A DNA stretch of 27,924 nucleotides from Promethearchaeota archaeon (GCA_048941285.1 JBHLNS010000043.1:1-27924), one strand, 5' to 3'; counted from the first letter of the stretch, positions 3,450 to 24,700 are shown. Program-made: numbers and translations. Notes: generated from the sequence alone by a model not told the origin.

Positions 3450-3621
3450 AATAATAAACCAAACTATTCTGTTATTTTTTTAAATTTTTAATTTAAAAAG
3501 TAATATTGTTTTTATGATTAATAATATTAATGCATTTCATTGGTGTAAATCTGAAATCTTTACCCCTAAAAATTGTTCTCTAATATTTGTATAAGGAAAA
3601 GAAAAAACTGAAATTATAATT

Positions 3622-3795
3622 TTATATTGGAAAGTCTCTCCGTATTTGGAGTTCACGCTTACAGTAACGAATTTGGCTTTTTATAAACCTAAGTGGCCTT
3701 GGTTGTATGAGGTGCTCATATTTTTGTAGATGATCTTCCAAAAGATTGATTGCAAGTTCAAGCTTATTAATTCTATTTTGAGTTTGGCTCATCAT
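3622..3795 (-). CDS. Small hypothetical protein, 57 aa, predicted helical
   Basis: Below the ORF-track cutoff. MMSQTQNRINKLELAINLLEDHLQKYEHLIQPRPLRFIKSQIRYCKRELQIRRDFPI*, with GAGGT upstream. It fills an otherwise 550-nt gap. Confidence 0.6.
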   Translation of the reverse strand: MMSQTQNRINKLELAINLLEDHLQKYEHLIQPRPLRFIKSQIRYCKRELQIRRDFPI

Positions 3796-4003
3796 AATTT
3801 TAGCTTACCTCAAACCCTTAATTTTTTAATAATAAAGATTCAAGAGTCATCAATTAAAAAATAGATAGAGGGCTCAGATTTTATGGATTTTTACAATGAA
3901 TTTAAACTGTTATTATTAACTCTTCTCATAATCTAATTAAATCATGAATTTTTTTATCTATTAAGACCTCTTTAAGGAATTTTTAAATTAAGGGATTATT
4001 AAA

Positions 4004-8818: not shown

Positions 8819-8991
8819 GTATTATAAACCTTTTTTATTTCAATTTATTAAATTCTAATTATTAAATTAAAAAATACTTTGATGCGATTATATTTTTAGT
8901 TTTCTCCTTTTTGCTATAATCGAATATACCTATGGTTAAAAGGAGGCAGTTTAAGAATTTTTATATAGAATATATAATGAAGTTCTAAATT

Positions 8992-9996
8992 CTATACTAA
9001 ATTATTTATTATTATTTCAGAAATATCTCCAGCATATTCTCCCGTTCTTCTAATGCTTTCAATAATATACCCAATTGCTATTGACAATTCAGCACTATTG
9101 GTAGTATCAAGAGATATTTTTTCCGTAGTTAAAATTAATTCCTTTATCGCTTCTATATTTTGATTTGCTAGTAAAATACTTTTTTGAAGCCATGCATCAA
9201 GGCTTTTATCTAACAAATCTAATGCTAATTTACTTGCTACTAAGATGTTTTTAATTAAACCATTTTCAATCTTTTTGTAATCTATTAGTAGTACATTCTT
9301 AGCAATACGAACTGCATGATCCCCAACCCTTTCGAGAAACCTCGATATTTGTTGGAAATGATTTGCTTGCTCTAACGTTAAACCCATCTTTTGGCAGAGA
9401 ATGATGTCTCTCAATGCTATGTGAGATTGACGACCAATTAACCAATGTAATCTATCGACATCATTATCTCGTTTTATTACGTCTTCTGCTAAGTTTTTAT
9501 CACCCATTTCTAAAGCTTTAATTGCATCAAAATGCATGTCGTGAACAAGAATATACATTCTTTTTATGGTTTTTTCGAAAGGCATTTCGGTTGGATTGAG
9601 CAAATCTTTAATTACTATGAAATTATTAGATTCTTCAACTACTTCAGGACCAATTGCTATTTGAGTGAAATTATTGATACAATCTCTAATATAAGTTTCA
9701 AATTTCTTACTAGATTTAATTATAATTTTCGAAAAGCCCATTATATATGATCCAATTAAAACACGGAAAAAATAATTGTCGTCCTTAAATTCATCTACAA
9801 CTATCTCTTTAGTCTTGATTATTTTTTCACTATCAATTTGAGGAGTTATTAGCAAATTTCCATCAGGTTGAGATAAAATACCAAGAGTATCTTTTGATTC
9901 TATCCCATTTTTATCAATCCATATCTTTGGCAAGCTTATAATATAAGAACTTCCCCCCGTTTTCTGAACTTTTCTTGTTTCTATATGAAATGACAT
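8992..9996 (-). CDS. phoU: Archaeal phosphate uptake regulator (N-terminal AbrB/SpoVT DNA-binding domain plus PhoU repeats)
   Basis: ETRKVQKTGGSSYIISLPKIW (AbrB-like), DNDVDRLH, LERVGDHA and ESIRRTGEYAGDISE. Confidence 0.93.
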   Translation of the reverse strand: MSFHIETRKVQKTGGSSYIISLPKIWIDKNGIESKDTLGILSQPDGNLLITPQIDSEKIIKTKEIVVDEFKDDNYFFRVLIGSYIMGFSKIIIKSSKKFETYIRDCINNFTQIAIGPEVVEESNNFIVIKDLLNPTEMPFEKTIKRMYILVHDMHFDAIKALEMGDKNLAEDVIKRDNDVDRLHWLIGRQSHIALRDIILCQKMGLTLEQANHFQQISRFLERVGDHAVRIAKNVLLIDYKKIENGLIKNILVASKLALDLLDKSLDAWLQKSILLANQNIEAIKELILTTEKISLDTTNSAELSIAIGYIIESIRRTGEYAGDISEIIINNLV

Positions 9997-10056
9997 GTTT
10001 TTATCCCTTTTCTTCTATTTATATAAAAATAAGAAACAATATATTTAAATACTAAT

Positions 10057-10137
10057 CTATATATACTATATATTTTTATTCGTTTTTATATGTTCTTCAG
10101 CTAGTTTTCTTAAAAAGAGCCTATATTAAATATATAG
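10057..10137. promoter_or_regulatory. CTATATA box cluster upstream of phoU
   Basis: CTATATA at 10057 and 10066 (9-nt period). Palindrome CTATAT-N5-ATATAG at 10121-10137. Confidence 0.55.
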
Positions 10138-10243
10138 ATGATCTTTTTATGAATGATTTTATTATTTTATTCAGAAAACAAGATATCTCATATTAAAGTA
10201 AAATAAAAAATGTAAATTTTAAATAAAATTAGTTGATTTTTAT

Positions 10244-10870
10244 ATGGATTCTTATAACAAAATACCCGAGGCTGAAATTAAGCCTGTAGGAGAGATATCA
10301 AAAAAATTATTAAACCTTGGAATTAAATCATTTAGAGAAGCTTGTGAGTATATTCATAATATAGAATACGGTTATAATACTAATTATGATGATATGATGA
10401 TTCTATTTAAGGAGAATAAGGGTACTTGTACAACTAAACACGCCACAATTGCAGGATTGGCTAAAGAACTCGGAATACCTCTTTATAAACACGTTGGTGT
10501 TTATAAATTTACAGAACAAATCTCTACTGGCACTAATGAAATTCTGTTGAAATATAAAATTCCATACGTTCCAATGGTACACTGTTTTTTGGTTTATAAA
10601 GATTTTCGATTTGATCTAACGGAAGGTAATTGTAATGGAAAAAATACAACTCTAGAAGAATTTATTCATGAAGAAAAAGTAGATCCTTTCATTAGCAGAA
10701 AAGATGAATATTTACTGCTTAAAAGAGTTATAAAGGAAAAAGTCTTACCATCTAAAGAAATGGAAGGGATTAAAGAGAGATCAATTCTAAAAGCTAGAGA
10801 AGAAGCAATTATTCTTTTAAAAGAAAATATGGAAAGACAAAAAAAATTGATTATAAATTACAGTAGCTAA
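10244..10870 (+). CDS. Hypothetical protein, transglutaminase-like (Cys-His-Asp) fold candidate
   Basis: KGTCTTKH, VHCFL and FDLT occur in the order expected for a transglutaminase-like triad. Confidence 0.65.
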   Translation: MDSYNKIPEAEIKPVGEISKKLLNLGIKSFREACEYIHNIEYGYNTNYDDMMILFKENKGTCTTKHATIAGLAKELGIPLYKHVGVYKFTEQISTGTNEILLKYKIPYVPMVHCFLVYKDFRFDLTEGNCNGKNTTLEEFIHEEKVDPFISRKDEYLLLKRVIKEKVLPSKEMEGIKERSILKAREEAIILLKENMERQKKLIINYSS

Positions 10871-10889
10871 GTTGAGATGTATAAATATA

Positions 10890-11582
10890 CTAAATTCCTT
10901 TTTCACTAGTTAATAAAACCATTATATAATCTGCGACACCTTCAATTGAATCTGAAATGGCTTCAAGAATATCGAAAATATTCCCTACGGTAAATATAGT
11001 GAAAAAATTTACATCATAATGAGTTTCTTGGAGGCTTTTTCTAAGTTGTATGTTAAGAAGATCAATTTTATGCTCGTGTTGATTTATTTGCCTTGCAATC
11101 TCTTTAACATTTTTTCTATCTTCTACTAAATCTATGACAATTTTATCAAGGAATTCTCCACACTCAACAGATGTTGTCATAATTTGACTGGCCAGACTTA
11201 AAGTTTCCTCACTGCTTTGTTCCCAAAATTTAATTGGTACCGTAGCAATCCTTCGAGCAACACCTGTACAACAATTTGCAACGTCATCCATCCTCTTAAC
11301 CAAATGAGATAAGTTTTGCCGTATACTAGGATCTAATTCTCCTCTGGAAATATCTTGTTGTATTGTTCTTCTTAATTTATCTGCGTCTCTTTCTAAAATA
11401 TCAACTTCATGAAAAATACTAGATGATTTATCAAGGTTCTTTTCATTCAAAAGCATTTGCAATCCTTCATCTAGCTTCCTTACACATTCTTGTACTTTTT
11501 GAGCATGTTTTATGGTCTTTTCTAATGCATTTAAAGCAGTTTCTCTTTTCAAATATTCAATTAAAGAGCCCATTTTCATCAA
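10890..11582 (-). CDS. DUF47 (PhoU-fold) phosphate transport regulator
   Basis: LERDADKLRR, RMDDVAN, HEHKID and LEAISDSIEGVAD. Adjacent to PiT. Start is TTG 11582 or ATG 11579. Confidence 0.88.
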   Translation of the reverse strand: MMKMGSLIEYLKRETALNALEKTIKHAQKVQECVRKLDEGLQMLLNEKNLDKSSSIFHEVDILERDADKLRRTIQQDISRGELDPSIRQNLSHLVKRMDDVANCCTGVARRIATVPIKFWEQSSEETLSLASQIMTTSVECGEFLDKIVIDLVEDRKNVKEIARQINQHEHKIDLLNIQLRKSLQETHYDVNFFTIFTVGNIFDILEAISDSIEGVADYIMVLLTSEKGI

Positions 11583-11604
11583 TTTTTTATTTATTTTCTA
11601 TTAT

Positions 11605-11631
11605 CTATATAGAATATATAGAAATATATAT
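11605..11631. promoter_or_regulatory. TATATAG box cluster between pit and DUF47
   Basis: CTATATAGAATATATAGAAATATATA. Units at 11606, 11615 and 11625, with palindrome CTATAT-N5-ATATAG at 11605-11621. Confidence 0.55.
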
Positions 11632-11652
11632 TTTGTTATTATTTTTTATTGA

Positions 11653-12690
11653 TCAAGAAATACCAAATATACTAAATCCAAAATAAATAGAACCAGCTAA
11701 TATCGCAGCTATAGGAAATGTTAATACCCAAAAGATTGCCATTTTGCCTAGTCCTTTATAATCTACTTCTTTTTTTTGAGCAAGGCTCATACCAACTATA
11801 CAGAAAACAATTACATGGCTATGGGAAATTGGTAAAGCAAATAATGTTGCAATCATTAATATAATTGCCGAGCTTAACTGAATAATAAATCCTTCACTCG
11901 GGCGTGTATCAATCATATGAGATGCCAGATTTCTGATTACATATCGTGCAGCAAAGTAAATCCCGAGAAATGAAAAGATCGCACATATTATTGCAAATGT
12001 AAAATATAGCCCACTTGTAATTGAATTATTTTCTCTAAGTCCTAAGAGTATACCTAATGCTTCTCCTGAATTAGCACCAACCCATATCTCTGCAAAAATA
12101 ACAGCAATCAATAAAAACCACTTAAATCTTTTTTCAGACTTTTCAATTTGATTTAATCCCCTTAATCTTGATAAGAAAAATTTAGCACTTATTTTAAAGA
12201 GAATATATGTTACTAACAGACCTGATATTGGTGATATAAACCAACTTAAAACAACATCTCTTAATTTCTCATAATTGAATGCTGTATTAATATCAATACC
12301 CCCTTGAAAGATAGCATATACAACAACAACACCTACAATGCTACCTATAAGTGAGTGAGTACTGCTTAAAGGTATACCCGCAAAACTACCTATTACTAAC
12401 CATATAATACTACTAATTAAAACCGTTAAAAGCATGTAATTAGTGTATTGCGATTCTAAACCCTCTCCTAAAAGACTTTTTCCCACCGTTTCTGGGACAA
12501 AACCACCACTGAAAAGTATCATACCACTCCCTATTGCGATACCCCCTAAAATCAATGCTATTTTAAATTTCAAAACGCCAGCACCAACTAAGGAAGCAAG
12601 AGTTTCATCATTAGCACCAATACTAAAGGCTAAGCCAACAGCCATCATAACTAGGACTATAACTAAGATTATCGTTAATTCTTCAGCCAT
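11653..12690 (-). CDS. pit: PiT (PHO4/SLC20) family inorganic phosphate transporter, divergent
   Basis: IGAND, GIPLSSTHSLIG and SWFISP in the first repeat. GANS, LPISHSH and WVLTFP in the second repeat. Confidence 0.88.
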   Translation of the reverse strand: MAEELTIILVIVLVMMAVGLAFSIGANDETLASLVGAGVLKFKIALILGGIAIGSGMILFSGGFVPETVGKSLLGEGLESQYTNYMLLTVLISSIIWLVIGSFAGIPLSSTHSLIGSIVGVVVVYAIFQGGIDINTAFNYEKLRDVVLSWFISPISGLLVTYILFKISAKFFLSRLRGLNQIEKSEKRFKWFLLIAVIFAEIWVGANSGEALGILLGLRENNSITSGLYFTFAIICAIFSFLGIYFAARYVIRNLASHMIDTRPSEGFIIQLSSAIILMIATLFALPISHSHVIVFCIVGMSLAQKKEVDYKGLGKMAIFWVLTFPIAAILAGSIYFGFSIFGIS

Positions 12691-12713
12691 ATTTGTTCTT
12701 GTCTTTTAATTTT

Positions 12714-13376
12714 TTAATCAAAAATTAGGTATTTTGTTGCAAGAAACTGAATATATTCAGAGAAATCTTTCATATGATCGGCTAACATCATTATATCTTC
12801 AATTAAATTCTTCAAGTATAAAAATGTTCTAGATAGATAATCCATATCATAATTATAAAGACGATTTAATAAGCTCCATTCTTCATTTCTCATTTTCCTT
12901 CGTTCTTCTTTAATATCCTCACATATATCCTGAGCTTTACTAAGATCAGAGCCAATTAATTTCACTGCATCTGATACATTATTAGAGATTGTTCTTAGTG
13001 ATTTTAACACACTTTGAATTTGAAGCTTAAATTGCTCATCTGGAAAAACAACTTTATAAAGCAGCATACGATTTGCTAAATATTCTCCTATATTTTTAAT
13101 ATCATTAATTTTATTGAATAACTTTAATCTATCGGCCTTAGAGAACATTAATTTAGATTTGAATATTTTAGATTCAAATTTTTTTTTTATTTTAACCTCA
13201 GTGTTTGTATCTATTACGTAATTCAGATTTTCTTTAAATTTAGCGAAATCTTCTTTAACAAGACATTCTATTCCTTTTATCAACGTGATATTTTGTTCAT
13301 GTATGTTATCCATGAATAATTTTGTTAACTCATCAATACTGAGCTTATTTAAATCTGTATCCTCAATCTTTTTCAT
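12714..13376 (-). CDS. Divergent DUF47/PhoU-fold protein
   Basis: Similar size and helical pattern to its neighbours (DRLKL..KINDI, IEDIMMLADHMKDFSE), but lacks the ExxAD/EHxxD motifs. Ends 23 nt before pit. Confidence 0.65.
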   Translation of the reverse strand: MKKIEDTDLNKLSIDELTKLFMDNIHEQNITLIKGIECLVKEDFAKFKENLNYVIDTNTEVKIKKKFESKIFKSKLMFSKADRLKLFNKINDIKNIGEYLANRMLLYKVVFPDEQFKLQIQSVLKSLRTISNNVSDAVKLIGSDLSKAQDICEDIKEERRKMRNEEWSLLNRLYNYDMDYLSRTFLYLKNLIEDIMMLADHMKDFSEYIQFLATKYLIFD

Positions 13377-13401
13377 TTTCTATAATATTCTTTTTTATAT
13401 C

Positions 13402-13442
13402 CTATATAGTAAATATATTTTCTATTAAATTTCTATATATAG
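13402..13442. promoter_or_regulatory. CTATATA box cluster upstream of the divergent DUF47-pit unit
   Basis: CTATATAGTAAATATAT at 13402-13418 and CTATATATAG at 13433-13442. Confidence 0.5.
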
Positions 13443-13628
13443 TTTTATTTAATTGTTAAATTATTAATCTCAAAATATGAAGCTGAATAAGAGAAAATTT
13501 AGATATTCTCCTCTTATTAAAAGTTCTACTCTCTAAGTAAAATAACTCCAAATTTAGCAATATAAAACATAAAAAATAAGGAACGAATAAAAATTTCAAC
13601 TAGAATTATTTTATAATATAATTTTACA

Positions 13629-14324
13629 TCATTTTAGCTTTAAGGTCTTCTTAGCAACAGTCAACATGATAATGTAGTCAGCGACGTCTTCAGCATTATC
13701 ACTAACAGCTTCTAACGAGGATACCGAATTATGAATTTCGATTGCACTAAAGGGATTAATATCTGGATTTTTGGACACCAAAATTCTATTTATCCCATGA
13801 CGTAATTCGTCGCATTTATGTTCTAATACATTAATTTCTTCTCCTAGCTGCGTTATTTCCTCTTCTTTCGCGGTCAATAATTTATTTACCATAATATTTA
13901 CTTTCTTAACTGCTTCTACAGATATGCTAGTCATTTCTAAAAATTTCATATGAACTTCCGCATCCAATTTTAAAAAATCGGAATGATTCATATAAATGAA
14001 TATTCTGGCTCCTGCATTAGCAGCATTCGCTATATCATCAATCCTCTGAGTAAGATGAATCAAACTCTCACGAATTGTTGATGAGATCTCTGATTTTGAA
14101 ATCATATTCATTATATTTCTCCGGATCCCATCAGCTTGATGTTCTAATTCATCAACACGAAAAAAAACTTTTAACGATAGATCGATATTTTTTTCATTAA
14201 GTAGATAAGACATAGCTTTTTCGTATTCAACCACACACTCAAGAACTTTTTGCATATGAATTAACGTCTTATTTATAACATTTTCTTCATTACGCGATTT
14301 AAACCATTCAAATAATGAACTCAT
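13629..14324 (-). CDS. DUF47 (PhoU-fold) phosphate transport regulator
   Basis: LEHQADGIRR, RIDDIAN, LEHKCD and LEAVSDNAEDVAD. SD GGAGGT at 14335-14340. Confidence 0.9.
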   Translation of the reverse strand: MSSLFEWFKSRNEENVINKTLIHMQKVLECVVEYEKAMSYLLNEKNIDLSLKVFFRVDELEHQADGIRRNIMNMISKSEISSTIRESLIHLTQRIDDIANAANAGARIFIYMNHSDFLKLDAEVHMKFLEMTSISVEAVKKVNIMVNKLLTAKEEEITQLGEEINVLEHKCDELRHGINRILVSKNPDINPFSAIEIHNSVSSLEAVSDNAEDVADYIIMLTVAKKTLKLK

Positions 14325-14362
14325 TTCATTAACGACCTCCTTTTATAATTATTTTTATAACA

Positions 14363-15586
14363 TTATTCCAATTTTAATACTTCTTTTATAATATTGAATC
14401 CTGGATGTTTGAATATAATTCCCAACTCTTTTGGAAAATAAACAGTAACTTCTGAATTTTCTATAAAAGTACTATGAACTTCACTAGTTGCAGGAATTGT
14501 GACTACTATTATCTTTTCTTGTTCTTTTAGATTAATAAGAACTTCAAATCGATAAAAAACACCCATAAACTTACGTCGTTTTATCGTTCCAAAAATGGAG
14601 TTTTTCTTGTCTTTTACTCTATTTCCAATTCTTATCTTCATATGGTTTGCTCTAACTACTAATAATATTTTATCTCCATGATTAATTATATTATGTTTAT
14701 CTTTTGGTACATAAGAAACAAATATTTCATCTAATCCTATATCAATAGGCATAGGAGATGAATCTTCATGTATTTTAGCAAAAAATTTGTCTTTCTGTTT
14801 AGATGTCTTATGAATATCCCATGCTGGTATAGTCTTTTTTATACATACTCCCTCAAAATAATTAATTTCACTCATGAAGTTAGCAACAAAAAGACTTTTT
14901 GGATTATAATAGATTTGATCAGGCGTACCTAATTGTATGAGCCGTCCTTGGTTCATGATGGCAATACGATCAGCTAACATCATTGCTTCTCTTTCATCAT
15001 TTGTTACATGAATTGAGGTAAGCCCTAATTGCGATGATTTAGCCATTAATAATAATTCCCTTCTCAAATTCATCCTTAAACCAGCATCAAGTGCTTTTAA
15101 CGGTTCATCTAAAATTAACAATTTTGTATGCTCTAAATTTAAAAGCGCTCGACATAATGCTACTCGTTGTCTCATGCCACCACTTAGTTCATCTGGAAAT
15201 GCATCATTCCTTCCAGTAAGGAGAGTCATCATTAAAACTTGATCTACTAATGTTTGAGTTTGAGCCATATCACGAGCATGTACTCGTCCACTATAAGAAA
15301 TATTTTCAACAATATTCATGTGAGGAAACAAGGCATAATTTTCAAACATAAACCCTAGGTTTCTTTCTTCTGAGGTTTGGTTTGTCACATCTTTACTATC
15401 GAAGAAAACTTTTCCCGAATCTGGTTTTAAAAGGCCTGCAAGGATTTTAAGTAGTGTTGTCTTGCCTGCCCCAGTGGGGCCAAGAATTACAAAATATTCT
15501 TTATCCTTTATTTCGAGAGAAATAGTATCAAGAGCTTTAAAATTTCTGAAATTCTTATTGACATCTTTTAATTCTATATGTACCAT
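14363..15586 (-). CDS. ABC importer ATPase 2 (PotA/MalK/CysA-like, TOBE-like C-terminus) with degenerate Q-loop and H-switch
   Basis: Walker A GPTGAGKTT, signature LSGGMRQR, Walker B LLILDEP. Q-loop reads FENY and H-switch reads VTND. Confidence 0.92.
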   Translation of the reverse strand: MVHIELKDVNKNFRNFKALDTISLEIKDKEYFVILGPTGAGKTTLLKILAGLLKPDSGKVFFDSKDVTNQTSEERNLGFMFENYALFPHMNIVENISYSGRVHARDMAQTQTLVDQVLMMTLLTGRNDAFPDELSGGMRQRVALCRALLNLEHTKLLILDEPLKALDAGLRMNLRRELLLMAKSSQLGLTSIHVTNDEREAMMLADRIAIMNQGRLIQLGTPDQIYYNPKSLFVANFMSEINYFEGVCIKKTIPAWDIHKTSKQKDKFFAKIHEDSSPMPIDIGLDEIFVSYVPKDKHNIINHGDKILLVVRANHMKIRIGNRVKDKKNSIFGTIKRRKFMGVFYRFEVLINLKEQEKIIVVTIPATSEVHSTFIENSEVTVYFPKELGIIFKHPGFNIIKEVLKLE

Positions 15587-15602
15587 TCAATAATCACCAT
15601 AT

Positions 15603-16748
15603 TTATGTTAAAGATAATTCTTTAAGAAGATTATTAGGAGTTCTAAATACATGGATATCATTTTGATGAATTCCAATAATTAATTCTTGCCCATGAACAA
15701 AATTTTCCTCAAAATTACCAGGTTTTATTGATGAGAACCTATCTCCATTATCTAATATTAAATAAAATCTCTTAGTTGCTCCTATGAATCTTGAACTTTC
15801 AAGAGTAGTCTTAAATAATTGCATTTTTGACCAATCATAAGGGCTATTTTCGAAATCATAATCCAGTGGAAATAAATAGACATCTTCAAATCGAAAAGCA
15901 ATTACAATATTGTCATCTAGATTAAATTTGTTATTAAAATTATTACATAATAGTTTCGGTCCTCCTAACCTTATCCAAACCTCCATCTTTTCTTTTTCAA
16001 TCAGTTTTAAGACAAAACCTTGGAGGAAATTAGTTTCTCCTAAAAAATTTGCTACAAATATACTATTTGGATTTTCATACAAATCATAAGGAGATCCCAT
16101 TTGTAAAACATTTCCAGAACGCATGATAATTATTTTATCAGCTATCGCCATTGCTTCCTCTTGATTGTGAGTGACATGAATAGCGGTAAGACCTAAATCC
16201 TTTATTAAATTTCTTAACTCATTACGAAAAACTTTTGAAACTTTTGGATCTAATGACCCTAATGGTTCATCCATGATTAAAATTTTCGCTCCAGTGGCGA
16301 TTGCTCTAGCAATTCCAAGTTTTTGCAACCCTGGATTTCCAAATATGTTTGGATATTCATCAGCATAATCTAATAATCCAACTTTGATCAAAGCTTCTTC
16401 AGCTTTTTTAATAATATAATTATCGGGATACCCACGCATTTCTAGACCAAAAGTCACATTTTCCCAGACAGTTAACTGATCAAAAATTTCAAAATGCTGA
16501 AATATGAAACCCATATCTCTATCTTCTGGGGGAATGCCCCTAATATCTTCGCCATTTATTAAGACTTTTCCCAATGAAGGTTCTTCTAGTCCTGCAATCA
16601 TTCTTAGTGTTGTTGTTTTTCCACATCCAGTAGGTCCAATTAAAAATACATATTCTCCATCTTCAATTTTTACGGAAATATTATCCACCGCAAGAACTTT
16701 TCCTGCATTAAATGTTTTTGTAACGTTAACTAACTCTATACTTGGCAT
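15603..16748 (-). CDS. ABC importer ATPase 1 (PotA/MalK/CysA-like) with degenerate signature motif
   Basis: Walker A GPTGCGKTT, Q-loop FQHF, Walker B ILIMDEP, H-switch VTHN. The signature position reads FGNPGLQK. Confidence 0.92.
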   Translation of the reverse strand: MPSIELVNVTKTFNAGKVLAVDNISVKIEDGEYVFLIGPTGCGKTTTLRMIAGLEEPSLGKVLINGEDIRGIPPEDRDMGFIFQHFEIFDQLTVWENVTFGLEMRGYPDNYIIKKAEEALIKVGLLDYADEYPNIFGNPGLQKLGIARAIATGAKILIMDEPLGSLDPKVSKVFRNELRNLIKDLGLTAIHVTHNQEEAMAIADKIIIMRSGNVLQMGSPYDLYENPNSIFVANFLGETNFLQGFVLKLIEKEKMEVWIRLGGPKLLCNNFNNKFNLDDNIVIAFRFEDVYLFPLDYDFENSPYDWSKMQLFKTTLESSRFIGATKRFYLILDNGDRFSSIKPGNFEENFVHGQELIIGIHQNDIHVFRTPNNLLKELSLT

Positions 16749-16752
16749 AAGG

Positions 16753-18429
16753 TTAACCCCTTTTTTTTCTCACTGCTCTTAAGGCAAAAATTAAGAATGC
16801 ACTAAAAATTATAACAATAACACTTGCAAAGATTCCTGATGCATAGGCATTTGCCTCAACAAAATCAACGATTAGGACAGGAACTGTCCTTATACCTCCC
16901 ATTACAACAATAGTAGCGCCTGTTTCTCCTAATGAGCGAGTGAAAGTCATGATGCATCCTGCAATTATCCCTTGTTTTATATTAGGAAGTGTAATTTTTC
17001 TAAATACCGTCATATTTGAAGCACCTAAAGTACGTGCTGCTTCTTCAACACCTTTATTTGAAGATTCCAGAACTCCGATAATAGGTCGAACCATATACGG
17101 AAATGTAAAAGCAATATGTACAAACAAGATCATAAAAAACCCAGATTGAAATAATCCTAATCCTGTTGGCCCCCAAAACATAAATGTTGCAAATCCTAAA
17201 GCTGCTGAAGGAATTGCAATTGGAATATCTAAAATGGTATCCAAAAATGTAATAACTTTCCCCCAATTTCGTTTTGTAATTATAAATGCAAAAGGTATTC
17301 CAAAAATTATATTTACAAAAACAGCTAACGCTCCAATTTCTATTGAATAAATAAAACTTGTATAGAGAAATGCCCATTTATAATCTTGCCCTAAAAATAC
17401 TTCCCCTATAAAATCTTCTCCAAAAATTTCTGCAATAATATAAAAAGCAGGTATAAGAATTACAATAAAAAGTACACCTAATGATAAAACATCCCTTAAA
17501 CGTTTCAGATTCTTTTTACTTAAAAACTTTTCAATTTTAGGCCAAACTGATTTAACCGGGAATCTGCTCTTTCGAGTCAAAATTTTAATTGAAAATAGTA
17601 GTAGAATAGATATGGCAATTAATATTCCTGCCAACAATGAGGCAGAAGGCAGTTCTAATTGCCGTCTAAAACCCACAATCAGAATAGGAGCTGTCTCCAC
17701 TAAACCAGAAAGTATGATTGTAGCACCAGTTTCACCTAAACTTCTTGTAAAAGCAAGGATGGCACCAGCTATTAATCCTTCTTTCATTAATGGAAGAGTG
17801 ATGGTTCGAAATACAGTGAAACCTGAAGCACCTAGGCTTCGAGCTGCATCTTCATATAATGTAGCCGTTTTTTCTAATACAATTTTCATATTCCTTACAA
17901 TATATGGAAAAGTAAATACTATATGTCCTAATAAAATCAGAGTAAATCCTGGTTGAATTCCAAATATTCCCCAAAACAACATTATAGAAAATCCTAAGGC
18001 ACTTGTTGGTACTGCCATTGGCAAATCTACTAAAGCATCGAATATTTTTTTTCCTCTAAAATTATAACGAGTTAATATAATTGAAATTGGAAAAGCAATA
18101 ATAATATCTATCCCAACGGCTATTGCTGCAATTGAGAAGGAGTACCCTAGAGCTCTCAATATATTAAGCCATTGTAAATTACCTAATAATGAGTCGTTAA
18201 ACACATCCTCATTTATCGCGGGAATGTTGAAAAGAACTGTAGAAAAAATGTTAATTATTGGACCAATAATAACCAATACAAAGAAAATAATTACTATAGT
18301 GTCAAGACTTTTTCTGTATATTGATTTGGAAAAGAATCTATCTATTCTTAACACTAGAGGTAATTTTAACTCCTCTTCAAGAGATTCTTGAGTCAAATTG
18401 CGATCTTTTTTAAAGATTTTGTTTAACAT
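16753..18429 (-). CDS. ABC permease with two fused CysT/CysW/ModB-like domains
   Basis: Two EAA loops (YEDAARSLGAS, VEEAARTLGAS). DLPMAVPTSALG/DIPIAIPSAALG and FTRSLGETGAT each occur twice. Confidence 0.92.
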   Translation of the reverse strand: MLNKIFKKDRNLTQESLEEELKLPLVLRIDRFFSKSIYRKSLDTIVIIFFVLVIIGPIINIFSTVLFNIPAINEDVFNDSLLGNLQWLNILRALGYSFSIAAIAVGIDIIIAFPISIILTRYNFRGKKIFDALVDLPMAVPTSALGFSIMLFWGIFGIQPGFTLILLGHIVFTFPYIVRNMKIVLEKTATLYEDAARSLGASGFTVFRTITLPLMKEGLIAGAILAFTRSLGETGATIILSGLVETAPILIVGFRRQLELPSASLLAGILIAISILLLFSIKILTRKSRFPVKSVWPKIEKFLSKKNLKRLRDVLSLGVLFIVILIPAFYIIAEIFGEDFIGEVFLGQDYKWAFLYTSFIYSIEIGALAVFVNIIFGIPFAFIITKRNWGKVITFLDTILDIPIAIPSAALGFATFMFWGPTGLGLFQSGFFMILFVHIAFTFPYMVRPIIGVLESSNKGVEEAARTLGASNMTVFRKITLPNIKQGIIAGCIMTFTRSLGETGATIVVMGGIRTVPVLIVDFVEANAYASGIFASVIVIIFSAFLIFALRAVRKKRG

Positions 18430-18446
18430 ATAAATTATATTACCTA

Positions 18447-19571
18447 CTACGCTGTTGCTTTACATAATAACCATAAATCTGAGATCTTCAATAGTACTTC
18501 TCCATCTAATGGAGTATTTAGCTCAGGAACATTAAGTTCATAAGCAATTCCATTAGTCTCATAGTTAAATACTTCAGGATCCAATGGAATTGAAGGATTG
18601 ATTGGTCTAAATCCGTATTCTAATGCAGAAATAACAGTCTCATTATTATTTAAAAATTCAAGAAATGCTTCAGCTACAAATCTTTGCTGAGGGCTTATCC
18701 AATCCGCATTTAATATGCAAAATGGATGATCACTATATAAAGTGCCTTCTTCTGGATATACAGCAATGATTTTCCCTCCTGTAGCAGTACTAGAAATATC
18801 CCTTATTAAATTTTCATATAAAAACGCAATATTTAAAGCGGTTGGTCCCTCATTTTTCATATAACGTGCTAAGAAGCCAGTAGATGTTCCATAAACTACT
18901 GCACTAGACTCAAATTCTCGTAGCCATTGTTGGTTACTTAAATTGGTGAGATCAGATATTGTCAAATTTTCCGAAGAAGTACCTGAGGCTGCTGATAATG
19001 CCATAATTACACTCATAAACCCCGAATTTGATAATCGAGGATCAGTATGAGCCATTTTAATATTTATAGTTGGATTTAAAGACAGATTATGTACATCGTT
19101 GAAACCCTTAATATTATAAGTCTGGTTAAAAGACTCCCATGTAGCAATTACTATAGGCGAGTAAATTATTTTAACTGCAGCACTTATATTTACTATTGGG
19201 ATAATACTATGAGTTAGATCAGCCCACTTCGAATTTAAAAATGGCATCCAGATAGAACTTGCGGGACTCCAGATTGTAGGATATATCTCACCATTGAGGA
19301 TACTAATTATTGAGTTTGAAGACCCATATGGATGCATATCAATACTTATTGGTTCATCGGGATGAGTATTTTGCCACTCACTCAAAAAGCTTGTATATGC
19401 AACTGTCATCCAACTTGCTTTTTCAGAACTATAAATGATTGTTATATGTGTTTTGTTTTCTGTACCCCCTATTATAAGATTTGTCGATAATGTTCCTATA
19501 ACGAAGCCTATTATAAATATAAGTACTAAACTAAGTTTACTATGTCTTTTAATTTTGCGTGATTGATCCAT
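18447..19571 (-). CDS. Membrane-anchored extracellular solute-binding protein (ModA-like fold, resembling the SBP domain usually fused to vWA domains)
   Basis: Basic N-terminus plus one TM helix. Motifs YSSEKASW, PTIWSPASSIW, SPIVIATW, HTDPRLSNSG, TSTG, YENL, YPEEGTLYSDHPF and YGFRP. Confidence 0.85.
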   Translation of the reverse strand: MDQSRKIKRHSKLSLVLIFIIGFVIGTLSTNLIIGGTENKTHITIIYSSEKASWMTVAYTSFLSEWQNTHPDEPISIDMHPYGSSNSIISILNGEIYPTIWSPASSIWMPFLNSKWADLTHSIIPIVNISAAVKIIYSPIVIATWESFNQTYNIKGFNDVHNLSLNPTINIKMAHTDPRLSNSGFMSVIMALSAASGTSSENLTISDLTNLSNQQWLREFESSAVVYGTSTGFLARYMKNEGPTALNIAFLYENLIRDISSTATGGKIIAVYPEEGTLYSDHPFCILNADWISPQQRFVAEAFLEFLNNNETVISALEYGFRPINPSIPLDPEVFNYETNGIAYELNVPELNTPLDGEVLLKISDLWLLCKATA

Positions 19572-19795
19572 AATATTCAGAAATTAATTAGATTTTGGGT
19601 TAGATAAAAGATCTAATATATATATCTATAAAAGTGAAAATAATTCCACAAGTAATACCCAATATTAAAGTAATTAAAAATAAAGTTCGTCTTTTCATGT
19701 GTATTATTCTCTAATTTACTATATATATTTTTTTTAAGGTTGAAATCAATACTCTTTTTGAAATTTAATAGTTATAAGTTATTTGAATAGTTTTA

Positions 19796-19831
19796 CTATA
19801 TAACCTATATAAACTATATAGAGATATATAG
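19796..19831. promoter_or_regulatory. CTATATA box array upstream of the ABC operon
   Basis: CTATATA at 19796, 19805 and 19814 (exact 9-nt period), then TATATAG at 19825-19831. A further copy is at 19719. Confidence 0.6.
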
Positions 19832-19845
19832 ACGAAAAATTCTAA

Positions 19846-21420
19846 TTATAGTAGACTTTCACCAATAACACTCTCATGTGGTCTTTTTCCTAAAAATTTA
19901 ACTAATGTAGGAACTATATCAGTAACTTTACAAGCATTAACTCTCTTTTGAGGAATCTCTGAAGATCCACCTATAATTAAAGGAACTGCCATGCATTTCT
20001 GAAGGCCAATATCATGATCGTATAGACTTTTGCTTTTTTGCTTTCCATGATGAATGCCGTATTTTATTGTTTCATCATTACATAGGATTATATCAGCGCT
20101 TCTTGGGTTTTTAAAATGACGAGGTATTAAATCTGGGTGCATAGGGTAATCTAAATGGTATGTAGCTTCTAACCATTCTTTAGTTGAGTGGAATTTATTA
20201 TCCATTAATTGAATTGCGATATTATCATTTCTAAAATTAAAAATGTCTAATTTATTATCTTCTGAGATATAACGTGTTTTATATTCCTTCCCAATACCTT
20301 CATACTCAATCTTTCCAGTTATTATTCTACCTGTATCTTTAACTTTTCTTTTAAGGTGAATTGTACCTTTCTCATGTGTATTATTTTCATCTCTATAAAA
20401 CATCAAATGGCTTCCATTAATTTTAAATAAATCTTCTAATAAATTTATCCTTTTTGGGCCATATCGTTCAAGTTCTTTAATGCTCGGAAGACCCCAACTA
20501 TTTTTAAGATTGATATTAGTAAATCCTTTAAAATAGAAAAATCCTACACCAGCATAATAAGCAAGATCCATATTTCCTCTTATATTTTTGAAAGGATGAT
20601 AATTTACTAAACCATTTTGCTTAAAATATGGTCTTAAATCTCCAATTTTGTTAGATTTATAATTTCCATGATCAGATGTAATCGCTATAGCAGTTTCATC
20701 TAAATAACCCAATCTCTCCAAATTATCAATCAATACTCCAATAACTTTATCAATGTGTAGTAAATTTAATTTATAAATTTGCGAATCATATCCAAATTTA
20801 TGCATCAAAAGATCAGATGACATAAACCATATTGAAGAAGCAATTGGTGGATCTGCATTATGAAAAAATTTTTTAGGTTTCTCAAATGTTTCAATTAATT
20901 TTTGCACAATAACAGAATTCGAACGGGCCATCCTTCTTTTTACACTTGGAAAGTATCTCAAAACAAGATAAAGCATAGCAAGTTTAGTTTTTCTTTCGGG
21001 AAAAACGTAATCAGCTCCTCTATTAATGAATTGAGCTATACTAGCAGTATTTCCATCACCCACCATTTCAAGAAATGTTTTGCAATTATTCCCTATATCA
21101 TTGTTAATTTTATAGATTTGTAAATCTAAAGCAGCATATTCTCTTAACATTGGAGGCGATACTTCACGTCCCATCCAATTTAGAAGTGGAACTCCGTGAC
21201 ATGGTTCTTTTTTAAAATTTCCGGTATAGGTCCCTGTCAATAAAGAAACTTGTGTAGGATAAGTAATAGGTGGAAAGTCAGTAATACAATTTTCTGAATA
21301 AATGCCATTTTCCATTAATTTCTTAAAATTTGGCAATAAACCCTTTTTTATATAATCAAAGAAATGGGTAGCTCTAATGTCATCTATTATACAAAAAATA
21401 ACTCTGCTGATTTTATTAAT
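19846..21420 (-). CDS. Alkaline phosphatase superfamily enzyme (type I phosphodiesterase/nucleotide pyrophosphatase), probable ATT start, 524 aa
   Basis: VIFCIIDDIR lies upstream of the track's TTG. Other motifs: FPPITYP (Thr nucleophile), SDLLMH, TSDHG, YDHD, VPLIIGG and DIVPTL. Confidence 0.87.
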   Translation of the reverse strand: MNKISRVIFCIIDDIRATHFFDYIKKGLLPNFKKLMENGIYSENCITDFPPITYPTQVSLLTGTYTGNFKKEPCHGVPLLNWMGREVSPPMLREYAALDLQIYKINNDIGNNCKTFLEMVGDGNTASIAQFINRGADYVFPERKTKLAMLYLVLRYFPSVKRRMARSNSVIVQKLIETFEKPKKFFHNADPPIASSIWFMSSDLLMHKFGYDSQIYKLNLLHIDKVIGVLIDNLERLGYLDETAIAITSDHGNYKSNKIGDLRPYFKQNGLVNYHPFKNIRGNMDLAYYAGVGFFYFKGFTNINLKNSWGLPSIKELERYGPKRINLLEDLFKINGSHLMFYRDENNTHEKGTIHLKRKVKDTGRIITGKIEYEGIGKEYKTRYISEDNKLDIFNFRNDNIAIQLMDNKFHSTKEWLEATYHLDYPMHPDLIPRHFKNPRSADIILCNDETIKYGIHHGKQKSKSLYDHDIGLQKCMAVPLIIGGSSEIPQKRVNACKVTDIVPTLVKFLGKRPHESVIGESLL

Positions 21421-22701: not shown

Positions 22702-22773
22702 AGCCCCCGGGGGGATTTGAACCCCCGACCTTCCGATTACAAGTCGAATGCTATACCGCTAAGCTACGGAGGC
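22702..22773 (-). tRNA. trnT: tRNA-Thr(UGU), no intron, CCA not encoded
   Basis: Reverse complement reads GCCTCCG TA GCTTAGCGGTATAGC A TTCGA CTTGTAA TCGGA AGGTC GGGGG TTCAAAT CCCCC CGGGGGC T. Full cloverleaf with anticodon TGT. Confidence 0.97.
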
Positions 22774-23434: not shown

Positions 23435-24700
23435 ATGTCAGAAAATAAAATCTATGATGTATGTATAATTGGTGCTGGACCGGCAGGTTCAACATGTGCT
23501 TATTATTTAGCACAAAAAGGGATAATATCATTAGTCCTTGAAAAAAAAGAATTTCCTAGAGATAAAATATGTGGTGATGCATTTACTCAACGCGCTCAAA
23601 TTCATCTCGAGAGGATGGGACTTTTACAAAAATTAGTTGAAGAGAAGAAAGGTCGATGGACTGCTCAAGGAGGAATAATTAGCCCCAGAGGAATAGTGTA
23701 CACAGGAGATTCATATGCAGAAATAAAATCACATTTAGTAATAGCAGTTAAAAGAAAAATTATAGATGATCTACTTATAAAAACCGCAATTGAAGCAGGA
23801 GCAATCTTGGTGGAAAATTATGCAGTAAAAGAAGTAAATCTTGAAAGAAATAAGGGATATTGGGCTATTCATTCAATAAATGGAGAAAAACAGACTTATT
23901 ATGCTAAAATCTTAATACTCGCGGATGGTGCTTCTTCTAGTATTGCTCAATCATTAGGAATTATAAAAAATCCTCCACAGACAGTTTGCAGTCGATCTTA
24001 TGTAAAAGCAGGAACATATAAATTTGACCAAGAAGGTATTGTAGTTATTCCTATGAATCTCGTTCCTGGTTATTGTGCACTTATGAAGGAAGCAGATGAT
24101 GATCTAGTCTTTTGTTGTTATATCATTCCTTTTGGGGAAATTCGTACTGAAAATCTGCATAAAATGCATCATGACTTAATTAAGAATAATCCTTATATAG
24201 CTGATGCCTTAGGTCCTAATGCTGTGCTTGAAGAGATGAAAGCAGCCCCTATTCGGTTTGGTGGAACATCTCAAAGTTATGATAATCACTTACTCATTGT
24301 TGGAGATGCTGCGGGAATGATAGATCCCCTAACTGGAGAAGGATTGCAATATGCAATGGATGCTGCTGAAATCGCTGCTGATGTAATTATTGAAGCCATT
24401 CAAAAGAATAACTTTACTAAGCAATTTCTTAAACAATATCAAATAAAATGGATGAAAAGTTTTGGAAAAGACTTTAAGTGGTCTACACGTATGGCTCGTT
24501 TCTGTGCAAAGCATCCTATATTTTTTGATGCGTTTGCATCCTTAAGTCAAAAAAAAGGAGATAAATTTATGGTTGAATGGGGAAAGATCATGACTGGTTC
24601 GAAGAGAAAAATAAATTTTTTCCTTCCTAAGTTAGCTCTACCTTTAGTTTTCGAAACTTTGAGATTAAAACGTAAATTTAAGAAGCAGAATATGACATAA
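23435..24700 (+). CDS. Geranylgeranyl reductase family flavoprotein
   Basis: YDVCIIGAGPAGS, FPRDKICGD, ADG and VGDAAGMIDPLTGEGL. Confidence 0.9.
   Translation: MSENKIYDVCIIGAGPAGSTCAYYLAQKGIISLVLEKKEFPRDKICGDAFTQRAQIHLERMGLLQKLVEEKKGRWTAQGGIISPRGIVYTGDSYAEIKSHLVIAVKRKIIDDLLIKTAIEAGAILVENYAVKEVNLERNKGYWAIHSINGEKQTYYAKILILADGASSSIAQSLGIIKNPPQTVCSRSYVKAGTYKFDQEGIVVIPMNLVPGYCALMKEADDDLVFCCYIIPFGEIRTENLHKMHHDLIKNNPYIADALGPNAVLEEMKAAPIRFGGTSQSYDNHLLIVGDAAGMIDPLTGEGLQYAMDAAEIAADVIIEAIQKNNFTKQFLKQYQIKWMKSFGKDFKWSTRMARFCAKHPIFFDAFASLSQKKGDKFMVEWGKIMTGSKRKINFFLPKLALPLVFETLRLKRKFKKQNMT

Follow-up and report, generated by a model that had tools for sequence, protein, structure and literature searches.

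Tandem TATA-like palindromes in a phosphate gene island of an Asgard archaeon: a conserved element and predicted operator of an AbrB-PhoU regulator

In this study, we describe short TATA-like repeats, recognizable by the 7-mer CTATATA/TATATAG, in the intergenic gaps of a gene block on contig C75 of a Promethearchaeota archaeon (GCA_048941285.1). The contig was analyzed over its entire length of 27.9 kb and is referred to as the window; the block, called the phosphate island, extends from ~8.9 to 21.3 kb. The repeats are distributed non-randomly, are conserved among relatives, stand before phosphate genes and covary with the clade of a regulator encoded in the island, in which an AbrB-type DNA-binding domain is fused to a PhoU domain (AbrB-PhoU). 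We are highly confident that genes for phosphate acquisition share these repeats as a conserved cis-regulatory element. Their reader is probably AbrB-PhoU, and we consider it likely that the repeats represent the autoregulated operator of this one-component regulator, defining a Pho-like regulon in which both binding and phosphate response are predictions.

A preliminary description of the window had listed 13 copies of the 7-mer (at 8962, 10057, 10066, 10131, 11605, 11615, 13402, 13433, 19719, 19796, 19805, 19814, and 19825), all of which exist. There are additional overlapping copies on the opposite strand at 11606, 13403, 13436, and 19815, and two copies within coding sequence, one at 18733 in the gene of the substrate-binding protein (SBP) and the other at 24194 outside the island. 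Counted on both strands, the window total amounts to 19 matches, compared with 9.3 ± 2.9 in 100 dinucleotide shuffles (maximum 15; none of the 100 reaches 19). Five island gaps (8819-8991, 9997-10243, 11583-11652, 13377-13628, and 19572-19845; 1016 nt) contain 17 of these 19 matches, while the other 17 intergenic segments of the contig contain none. Set against the intergenic background of the genome, the motif is not equally frequent elsewhere: its density is 16.7 per kb in the island gaps versus 0.49 per kb over all intergenic DNA (232 matches in 473,810 nt), a difference of approximately 34-fold. Among 2985 gaps genome-wide, 2790 are without a copy and seven hold at least three, four of which belong to the island. 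The claim that the repeats are confined to the island holds within the window and fails genome-wide, since the same 16-mer recurs at position 2290 of contig C99.

The preliminary description had further reported a 9-nt period and palindromes of the form YTATAT-N5-ATATAR at 8961, 10121, and 11605, and imperfectly at 13402. Both features are seen in the sequence. Instead of the longer palindrome, we prefer to speak of (C)TATATA(G) units that follow in tandem every 9-10 bp; YTATAT-N5-ATATAR corresponds to two CTATATAG-type units at a distance of 9 bp. As judged from the sequences, each unit is an 8-bp palindrome, CTATATAG, in which one of the two caps is often degenerate, and a group comprises two to four units. 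TATATA hexamers follow each other at 9, sometimes 10, bp (8962/8971, 10058/10067, 10122/10131, 11606/11615/11625, and 19797/19806/19815/19825). TATATA-N3-TATATA occurs ten times in the genome, five times of these in the island, the N4 spacer eight and two times, the N1 spacer five and one time, while dimers with N2 or N5-N8 spacers occur three to nine times each in the genome and never in the island. The exact dimer TATATAG-N2-TATATAG is found six times, namely four times in the island, once at C99:2290, and once inside a gene on contig C23. When up to one mismatch is allowed, all intergenic matches are located on C75 or C99. Of 86 distinct sites from relatives, 63 have a C directly before the first unit.

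The repeat unit does not appear to be the ordinary TATA box of this genome. In promoter-bearing gaps outside C75, CTATATAG has seven sites, whereas TTTATATA and TTTAAATA are counted 321 and 606 times on both strands. Lone CTATATAG words elsewhere (nine intergenic sites on contigs other than C75, including two on C99) were considered as targets and rejected, as their frequency does not exceed a rough estimate from base composition.

For comparison we used metagenome-assembled genomes (MAGs) of relatives; the genus set comprises 31 genomes (three, G001, G009, and G010, are fragmentary). AbrB-PhoU orthologs with 68-93% protein identity are present in 17 further genomes of the genus. Phylogenetic footprinting, as proposed in the preliminary description, reveals a single block, TATATAGAATATATAG on the coding strand (10072 to 10057 in the window), that is nearly invariant in the aligned upstream regions of all 18 genus AbrB-PhoU genes, with diverged flanks on both sides. 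Moving to higher taxonomic levels, an ortholog (E ≤ 1e-40) was identified in 113 of 151 genomes of the order. Twenty upstream regions beyond the genus were fetched, and one of them was dropped (91 nt, contig end), leaving 19 regions from 10 other genera. The 7-mer occurs within 240 nt in all 19 (shuffles: mean 5.4, maximum 13) and a TATATA-N3/4-TATATA dimer in 12 (shuffles: mean 0.59, maximum 4); upstream of one ortholog of 42% identity, CTATATAG is embedded in a G+C-rich flank. Thus, a conserved site precedes the regulator's own gene in 18 of 18 genus members and 19 of 19 regions from other genera, and that the best conserved site of all is situated in the AbrB-PhoU promoter is as expected for autoregulation.

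AbrB-PhoU carries an N-terminal SpoVT/AbrB domain (MazE_antitoxin in Pfam) and a C-terminal PhoU domain, the domain order that defines the AbrB-PhoU family. Pfam reveals a DNA-binding domain in no other island protein. Within the AbrB domain, residues E6, R8, Q11, T13, G14, G15, S17, L22, P23, K24, and W26 do not vary among 17 orthologs (41-93% identity), and the closest solved PhoU chains (1t72 and 1xwm) align to residues 140-278 only. The genome's only other PhoU-domain protein is a PhoU+TrkA_C protein encoded beside MgtE-type genes. We consider AbrB-PhoU the likely binder because it is the sole island protein with a DNA-binding domain, because the best conserved site lies in its own promoter, and because site and regulator covary and are lost together.

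The covariation concerns a paralogous AbrB-PhoU clade of ~30% identity in two other families of the order, whose AbrB motif is EQKKVQEVKGSFY, as opposed to ETRKVQKTGGSSY in the orthologs. In 10 of 12 paralog loci, CCATATG/CATATGG is found within 200 nt upstream (shuffle mean 0.26), and CTATATA in none of the 12. Conversely, 36 of 37 orthologs show CTATATA/TATATAG within 200 nt upstream, and none of the 37 shows CCATATG. The CCATATGG-type palindromes are located 30-110 nt before the paralog gene, in one case in tandem, 10 bp apart, as CCATATGTAACCATATG. The site hence changes with the DNA-binding domain, as in an autoregulated operator, in genomes that are not independent of each other. The paralog neighborhoods inspected in two genomes (G032 and G061) show no clear phosphate island.

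A search with the exact dimer TATATAG-N2-TATATAG in the genus set yielded 107 matches, compared with 18 for the reversed pattern, and 29 of the 31 genomes contain at least one. The 107 matches were merged by hand to 77 site clusters and classed by gene searches on their flanks, with the exception of two clusters (G001:C440 and G041:C28:13634) that were classed by their position on an island contig only. Three locus types account for 70 of the 77 clusters: 40 belong to the island, 24, from 23 genomes, to a zinc-ribbon/metallophosphoesterase locus, and six to the gene of a 71-aa membrane protein. The seven remaining clusters comprise three in coding sequence, two upstream of a cation-efflux-family gene, and two unclassified ones.

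The metallophosphoesterase locus, present in 23 of the 31 genomes and twice in one of them (contigs C58 and C97 of G015), is composed of alaS, followed by CTATATAGACTATATAG and TTTATATAA, a gene for a zinc-ribbon protein of 60-80 aa with the pattern CxxC...CxxC, and the gene of a 274-aa calcineurin-like metallophosphoesterase. It was not found in the assembly from which the window derives. An unlinked phosphoesterase target fits a phosphate-scavenging regulon, as far as annotation can tell. In the window's genome, the second dimer-bearing locus lies on C99 (2018-2305), where the gene of a 71-aa membrane protein with two helices is flanked by hypC and a gene for a ParA/MinD-like ATPase; the 16-mer TATATAGAATATATAG is located ~57 nt upstream of the membrane-protein gene. 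The same arrangement recurs with its site in five further genomes (G003, G006, G009, G010, and G011), at 50-85 nt upstream. At two other loci (on G005:C4 and G042:C104), an exact dimer lies ~80 nt before the gene of a 469-470-aa Cation_efflux protein with winged-helix matches. This gene may be a fourth target.

All 24 genomes with an AbrB-PhoU ortholog have sites, and the only two of the 31 genomes without an exact dimer, G018 and G021, are also without the regulator. In G012 and G019, a site is present and no regulator was found. At the junction of alaS and metallophosphoesterase gene in G021, both the dimer and the zinc-ribbon gene are lost.

The coordinates of all features are collected in Table 1. 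The window's genome is that of an Asgard archaeon; its assembly comprises 3.55 Mb in 101 contigs with 29.7% G+C and is 94% complete. Elsewhere, it encodes a Vps4 with MIT domain beside Snf7.

Table 1. Genes and repeat sites of the phosphate island, and further features of the window
Feature	Position	Strand	Evidence or remarks
AbrB-PhoU, 334 aa	8992-9996	(-)	Pfam PF04014 7.3e-10 (residues 11-53), PF01895 4.2e-20 (residues 144-235)
208-aa protein, no family above threshold	10244-10870	(+)	weak transglutaminase-core match, E 0.002
DUF47a	10890-11582	(-)	PF01865
PiT (PHO4 family phosphate transporter)	11653-12690	(-)	Pfam PF01384 3.3e-52
DUF47b	12714-13376	(-)	PF01865
DUF47b-PiT-DUF47a operon	10890-13376	(-)	gene order kept in relatives
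DUF47c (PhoU_div)	13629-14324	(-)	Pfam
Two ATP-binding cassette (ABC) ATPases, fused double permease, SBP	14363-19571	(-)	Pfam, NCBIfam
ABC importer operon (SBP, double permease, two ATPases, DUF47c)	13629-19571	(-)	Pfam, NCBIfam
Hydrophobic 32-aa open reading frame (ORF) (MKRRTLFLITLILGITCGIIFTFIDIYIRSFI; begins MKRRTLFLITLILG)	19600-19698	(-)	between repeat array and SBP gene
Type I phosphodiesterase/alkaline-phosphatase-superfamily protein, 496 aa	19846-21336	(-)	Pfam PF01663 5.2e-22
Dimer TATATAGAATATATA	8962-8976		between AbrB-PhoU stop and FAD-oxidoreductase gene; specific to the window's genome
Dimer TATATAGTATATATAG	10057-10072	(-)	61-76 nt upstream of AbrB-PhoU start; exact TATATAG-N2-TATATAG; candidate autoregulatory operator
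Palindrome CTATAT-N5-ATATAG, two units 9 bp apart	10121-10137		125-141 nt before AbrB-PhoU start; 107-123 nt before divergent 208-aa gene
Three units (11606, 11615, 11625; spacing 9, 10)	11605-11630		27-51 nt before likely DUF47a ATG (11579); exact dimer
DUF47b-PiT promoter units	13393-13442		CTATATAG at 13402-13409 (26-33 nt from ATG at 13376), flanking half-units, CTATATATAG at 13433-13442
Single TATATAG	19719-19725	(-)	21-27 nt before ATG of 32-aa ORF
Four-unit array, coding strand CTATATA TCT CTATATAG TT TATATAG GT TATATAG	19796-19831	(-)	two exact dimers
ORF running off contig start	2-181	(-)	
tRNA gene	22702-22773	(-)	Rfam, 70.3 bits
Family B DNA polymerase gene, truncated by contig end	25802-27922	(+)	

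According to Pfam, all island genes lie on the minus strand except that of the 208-aa protein. With PiT (PF01384), three DUF47/PhoU_div proteins, and a phosphodiesterase-family protein, joined by the metallophosphoesterase in relatives, the gene set is by annotation that of phosphate acquisition, as would befit a Pho-type regulon. No PstC was found above cut-off in the genome, which is 94% complete, and the best PhoB match (TIGR02154), which is limited to the receiver domain, reaches 94.6 bits where the cut-off is 296.2. Phosphate uptake may depend on PiT together with the island's oxyanion-type ABC system, if annotation is a guide. The ABC ATPases are nearest to PhnT2, PotA, and CysA in NCBIfam.

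In relatives, the blocks of the island (DUF47b-PiT-DUF47a, ABC operon, and phosphodiesterase gene) are reordered and reoriented, and the ABC operon is absent in several genomes. The repeats travel with their promoters as the blocks reshuffle. The phosphodiesterase-like gene is present in 15 of 17 island loci of the genus, where three loci that lack it or fall short of it end at a contig edge. The 208-aa protein is encoded in the island at 13 of 17 genus loci, in variable position and orientation.

Individual sites differ in how well they are preserved. In the regulator's promoter, the dimer at 10057-10072 is followed after 7 nt by a TATA-like word, TTTAAATATATT, and a Shine-Dalgarno-like GGGAT/AGGAT stands ~11 nt before the ATG. 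About nine close relatives keep the neighboring palindrome at 10121, in the form ATCTATATATTTAATATAG, and in three of them the divergent gene is absent from this place. The triple unit before DUF47a is present at four orthologous loci, partially at a fifth, and reduced to a single TATATA at four others. Upstream of DUF47b, most of 13 orthologous regions combine CTATATAG near the gene with CTATATA(T)AG ~31 nt further away.

Measured from the small ORF at the head of the ABC operon, the four-unit array lies 98-133 nt upstream; measured from the stop of the phosphodiesterase-like gene, it lies 15-50 nt downstream. Together with its flank, GTAAAACTATTCAA, it is conserved upstream of the SBP gene at five of five loci; in genomes without the ABC operon, a four-unit array is found upstream of DUF47b instead. 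Around the single unit at 19719, AAAAATATATAGT is kept in four of five SBP-upstream regions, and this unit may serve the ABC operon as TATA box or be an operator that overlaps the box. A frame resembling the 32-aa ORF is present in all five SBP-upstream regions of relatives; on this comparison, it is probably an unannotated first gene of the ABC operon.

At the gathering threshold, Rfam finds the tRNA as sole match in the window, and the island gaps are empty. The 13 sequencing runs listed for 9900-19890 are all DNA metagenomes, with no RNA run among them. Two long gaps, 3450-4003 (554 nt) and 182-828 (~650 nt), contain short ORFs only (44-57 aa) and zero motif copies. In a positional profile upstream of gene starts from our crude gene calls, AGGA-type words are enriched 10-20 nt before the start, and the TATA-like signal is broad and without a sharp peak, so that promoter positions cannot be fixed from the profile.

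Beyond these observations, we infer the identity of the binder, the sign of regulation, and the phosphate signal. In the mechanism we propose, palindromic (C)TATATA(G) units, 9-10 bp apart and two to four per group, would serve as a transcription-factor operator in the DUF47-PiT, ABC, and regulator promoters. AbrB domains would dimerize, with one dimer per palindromic unit; the palindromic units fit a symmetric dimer, as required by the swapped-hairpin AbrB fold. Neighboring dimers might bind cooperatively, as the 9-10 bp spacing would let them face almost the same side of the helix. The PhoU domain, if it works like its bacterial counterpart, would signal phosphate status: with sufficient phosphate, AbrB-PhoU would occupy its sites and shut the promoters, and starvation would cause its release. 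Thus, we favor a repressor that leaves the DNA on starvation, where sign and signal are guesses by analogy.

The layout of the promoters was compared with this proposal. Before the regulator and metallophosphoesterase genes, the dimer stops 3-7 nt short of a TATA-like word, a position where transcription factor B (TFB) would contact its recognition element (BRE). For DUF47b and the ABC operon, one unit coincides in part with the likely TATA box, and further units follow 30-110 nt upstream. This arrangement suits a repressor that occludes the promoter, perhaps aided by DNA loops from distal to proximal units, and would also be compatible with activation from the upstream sites. With its TATA-like core, the unit also raises the possibility that AbrB-PhoU competes with the TATA-binding protein (TBP).

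Several findings weigh against AbrB-PhoU as the reader of a phosphate regulon. Two genomes, G012 (99% complete) and G019 (92%), retain a perfect CTATATAGACTATATAG upstream of the zinc-ribbon/metallophosphoesterase operon, and gene searches in them for an AbrB-PhoU ortholog, an island-type PiT, or an AbrB+PhoU fusion of any kind came back empty. A site without its regulator implies that another factor reads it, or that the island was lost recently, or that it is missing from the MAGs. As substitute binders, we considered the stand-alone AbrB proteins of these two genomes (71, 87, and 135 aa), which are unlike the AbrB-PhoU N-terminus, and the other PhoU protein of the genus, which is the PhoU+TrkA_C protein beside MgtE genes; both were rejected. 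Moreover, the repeats are not limited to the island, as shown by C99 in this genome and by the zinc-ribbon/metallophosphoesterase operon in 23 relatives, and the 8962 dimer has no counterpart in four relatives sharing its gene junction. The phosphate link as a whole comes from domain annotation, and the ABC permease exceeds the cut-offs of sulfate and molybdate permease families and is of the sulfate/molybdate/tungstate oxyanion type in NCBIfam. The unit has a TATA-box-like core that TBP may bind, and some proximal units (13402, 19719, and 11606) are situated at about the position of a TATA box. Finally, gene calls were made over the whole genome with a crude longest-ORF caller, from which the intergenic regions derive, and the compared genomes are kin, such that counts are not independent and significance is overstated. 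The preliminary proposal of an AbrB-PhoU operator that links the ABC operon to a phosphate regulon is therefore supported in part: the dimer in the regulator's own promoter, the word in other genera, the clade-specific palindrome, and the arrays before DUF47-PiT and ABC operons in relatives sustain it, while the orphan sites of G012 and G019, the sites outside the island, and the unconserved dimer at 8962 speak against it.

These findings have to be set against other explanations. The repeats could be a genuine operator that is read by a different transcription factor encoded elsewhere, with AbrB-PhoU as one of its targets, which is what the dimers kept in G012 and G019 would suggest. We regard this as unlikely, given that the palindrome switches with the clade of AbrB-PhoU, from CTATATAG (36 of 37) to CCATATGG (10 of 12) with no cross-occurrence, that the site upstream of AbrB-PhoU is the best conserved of all, that G018 and G021 lack both regulator and motif, and that the island is linked to no further gene for a DNA-binding protein.

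A reader of another kind would be the basal machinery itself, if the repeats were core-promoter elements, i.e., unusual or phased TATA boxes, perhaps used by a TBP/TFB paralog of their own. The core TATATA is TATA-like indeed, and single units lie 21-33 nt from start codons (19719, 13402, and 11606). Yet a copy number of two to four and distances to the start codon from ~21 to more than 130 nt are at odds with this idea, as are the location of the four-unit array ~70 nt upstream of another TATA-like word, the separate TATA-like word after the dimer in the AbrB-PhoU and metallophosphoesterase promoters, and the conserved C/G caps, rare in other intergenic DNA; we deem it improbable. We give hardly any credence to the idea that the repeats arise by chance or from the composition of AT-rich spacers, or that they shape DNA or position chromatin without a specific reader. 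TA-rich words are common in a genome of 29.7% G+C and a TA periodicity of 9-10 bp suits DNA bending; however, the window count is out of reach of all shuffles, the density surpasses that of other intergenic DNA by the factor given above, exact dimers in 31 genomes are nearly exclusive to three locus types, and the block is conserved amid diverged flanks. An operator read by AbrB-PhoU is the explanation we favor.

A wider proposal, which we put forward tentatively and would not yet back ourselves, is that AbrB-PhoU is the master phosphate-responsive one-component factor in Asgard archaea and may play this part in further archaea that have no PhoBR. Its PhoU domain would sense phosphate and its AbrB domain would read tandem CTATATAG, possibly in competition with TBP given that these units resemble TATA boxes with C/G caps, and different clades would carry co-evolving palindromes (CTATATAG or CCATATGG). 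If this is true, these palindromes constitute a readable operator code for an archaeal regulator family without a described site.

Phosphate sensing and response in archaea are poorly understood. Full-text literature searches revealed no described operator for AbrB-PhoU and nothing on phosphate regulation in Asgard archaea; concerning the archaeal phosphate response, they returned only haloarchaeal pho-boxes, a study on a small RNA, and transcriptome surveys. Our analysis yields a precisely predicted site of 16-36 nt and a candidate for its regulator; the small regulon that we predict is conserved throughout a family of uncultured Asgard archaea. Along this line, a hypothesis on function is gained for the membrane proteins of 32 and 71 aa, for a zinc-ribbon protein of 60 aa, and for a non-Pst ABC importer.

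A close analogy is the Pho box of bacteria, which is bound by PhoB of the PhoB-PhoR system and consists of 7-bp direct repeats with an 11-bp period. Both cases share short repeats, approximately one helical turn apart, before phosphate transporters, phosphoesterases, and the regulator's own gene, as well as a small regulon. In contrast, the units described here are palindromes (CTATATAG) at 9-10 bp and hence not of the PhoB type, and their candidate binder is a one-component AbrB-PhoU fusion rather than a response regulator, in a genome with no PhoB or canonical PstC over cut-off. Bacterial PhoU is a negative regulator when phosphate is plentiful. Similar to the PhoU and DUF47 partners of bacterial Pst and Pit systems, PhoU-type helical bundles are encoded beside phosphate transporters in the island, which comprises three DUF47 genes and one PhoU domain; unlike AbrB-PhoU, bacterial PhoU acts via PhoR and PstB and has no DNA-binding domain.

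AbrB/SpoVT/MazE domains are dimeric and bind DNA that is often AT-rich, over extended regions, and we know of no clear consensus for classical AbrB. The N-terminus of AbrB-PhoU matches this family (PF04014), but here it is fused to PhoU, and its predicted site is a sharply defined tandem 8-bp palindrome. In Thermococcus kodakarensis, the AbrB-PhoU protein TK2245 is tabled among chromosome-associated proteins in PMC7325993.

In Methanosarcina mazei, pst-phoU and phoA are induced on starvation, with no regulator named in the excerpts of PMC6864096. For Halobacterium salinarum, excerpts of PMC6560208 describe pho-boxes in two pst promoters (pst1 and pst2) as essential for induction and, with reference to Furtwangler 2010, designate them as motifs to which PhoU regulators bind. 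Of the background given in the preliminary description, this secondary statement on haloarchaeal pho-boxes is the part for which we found literature. Going by the same excerpts, the haloarchaeal boxes resemble our repeats as archaeal promoter elements for phosphate-dependent induction of phosphate ABC transporters, a likeness by description and not by sequence. They differ in that their hosts are G+C-rich and possess a canonical Pst system, whereas tandem TATA-like palindromes precede PiT and a non-Pst ABC system in an Asgard lineage. As a kind, the phosphate box in archaeal promoters is thus already known; the sequence, the tandem-palindrome architecture, the lineage, the regulon members, and the clade-specific switch of the operator appear to be new.

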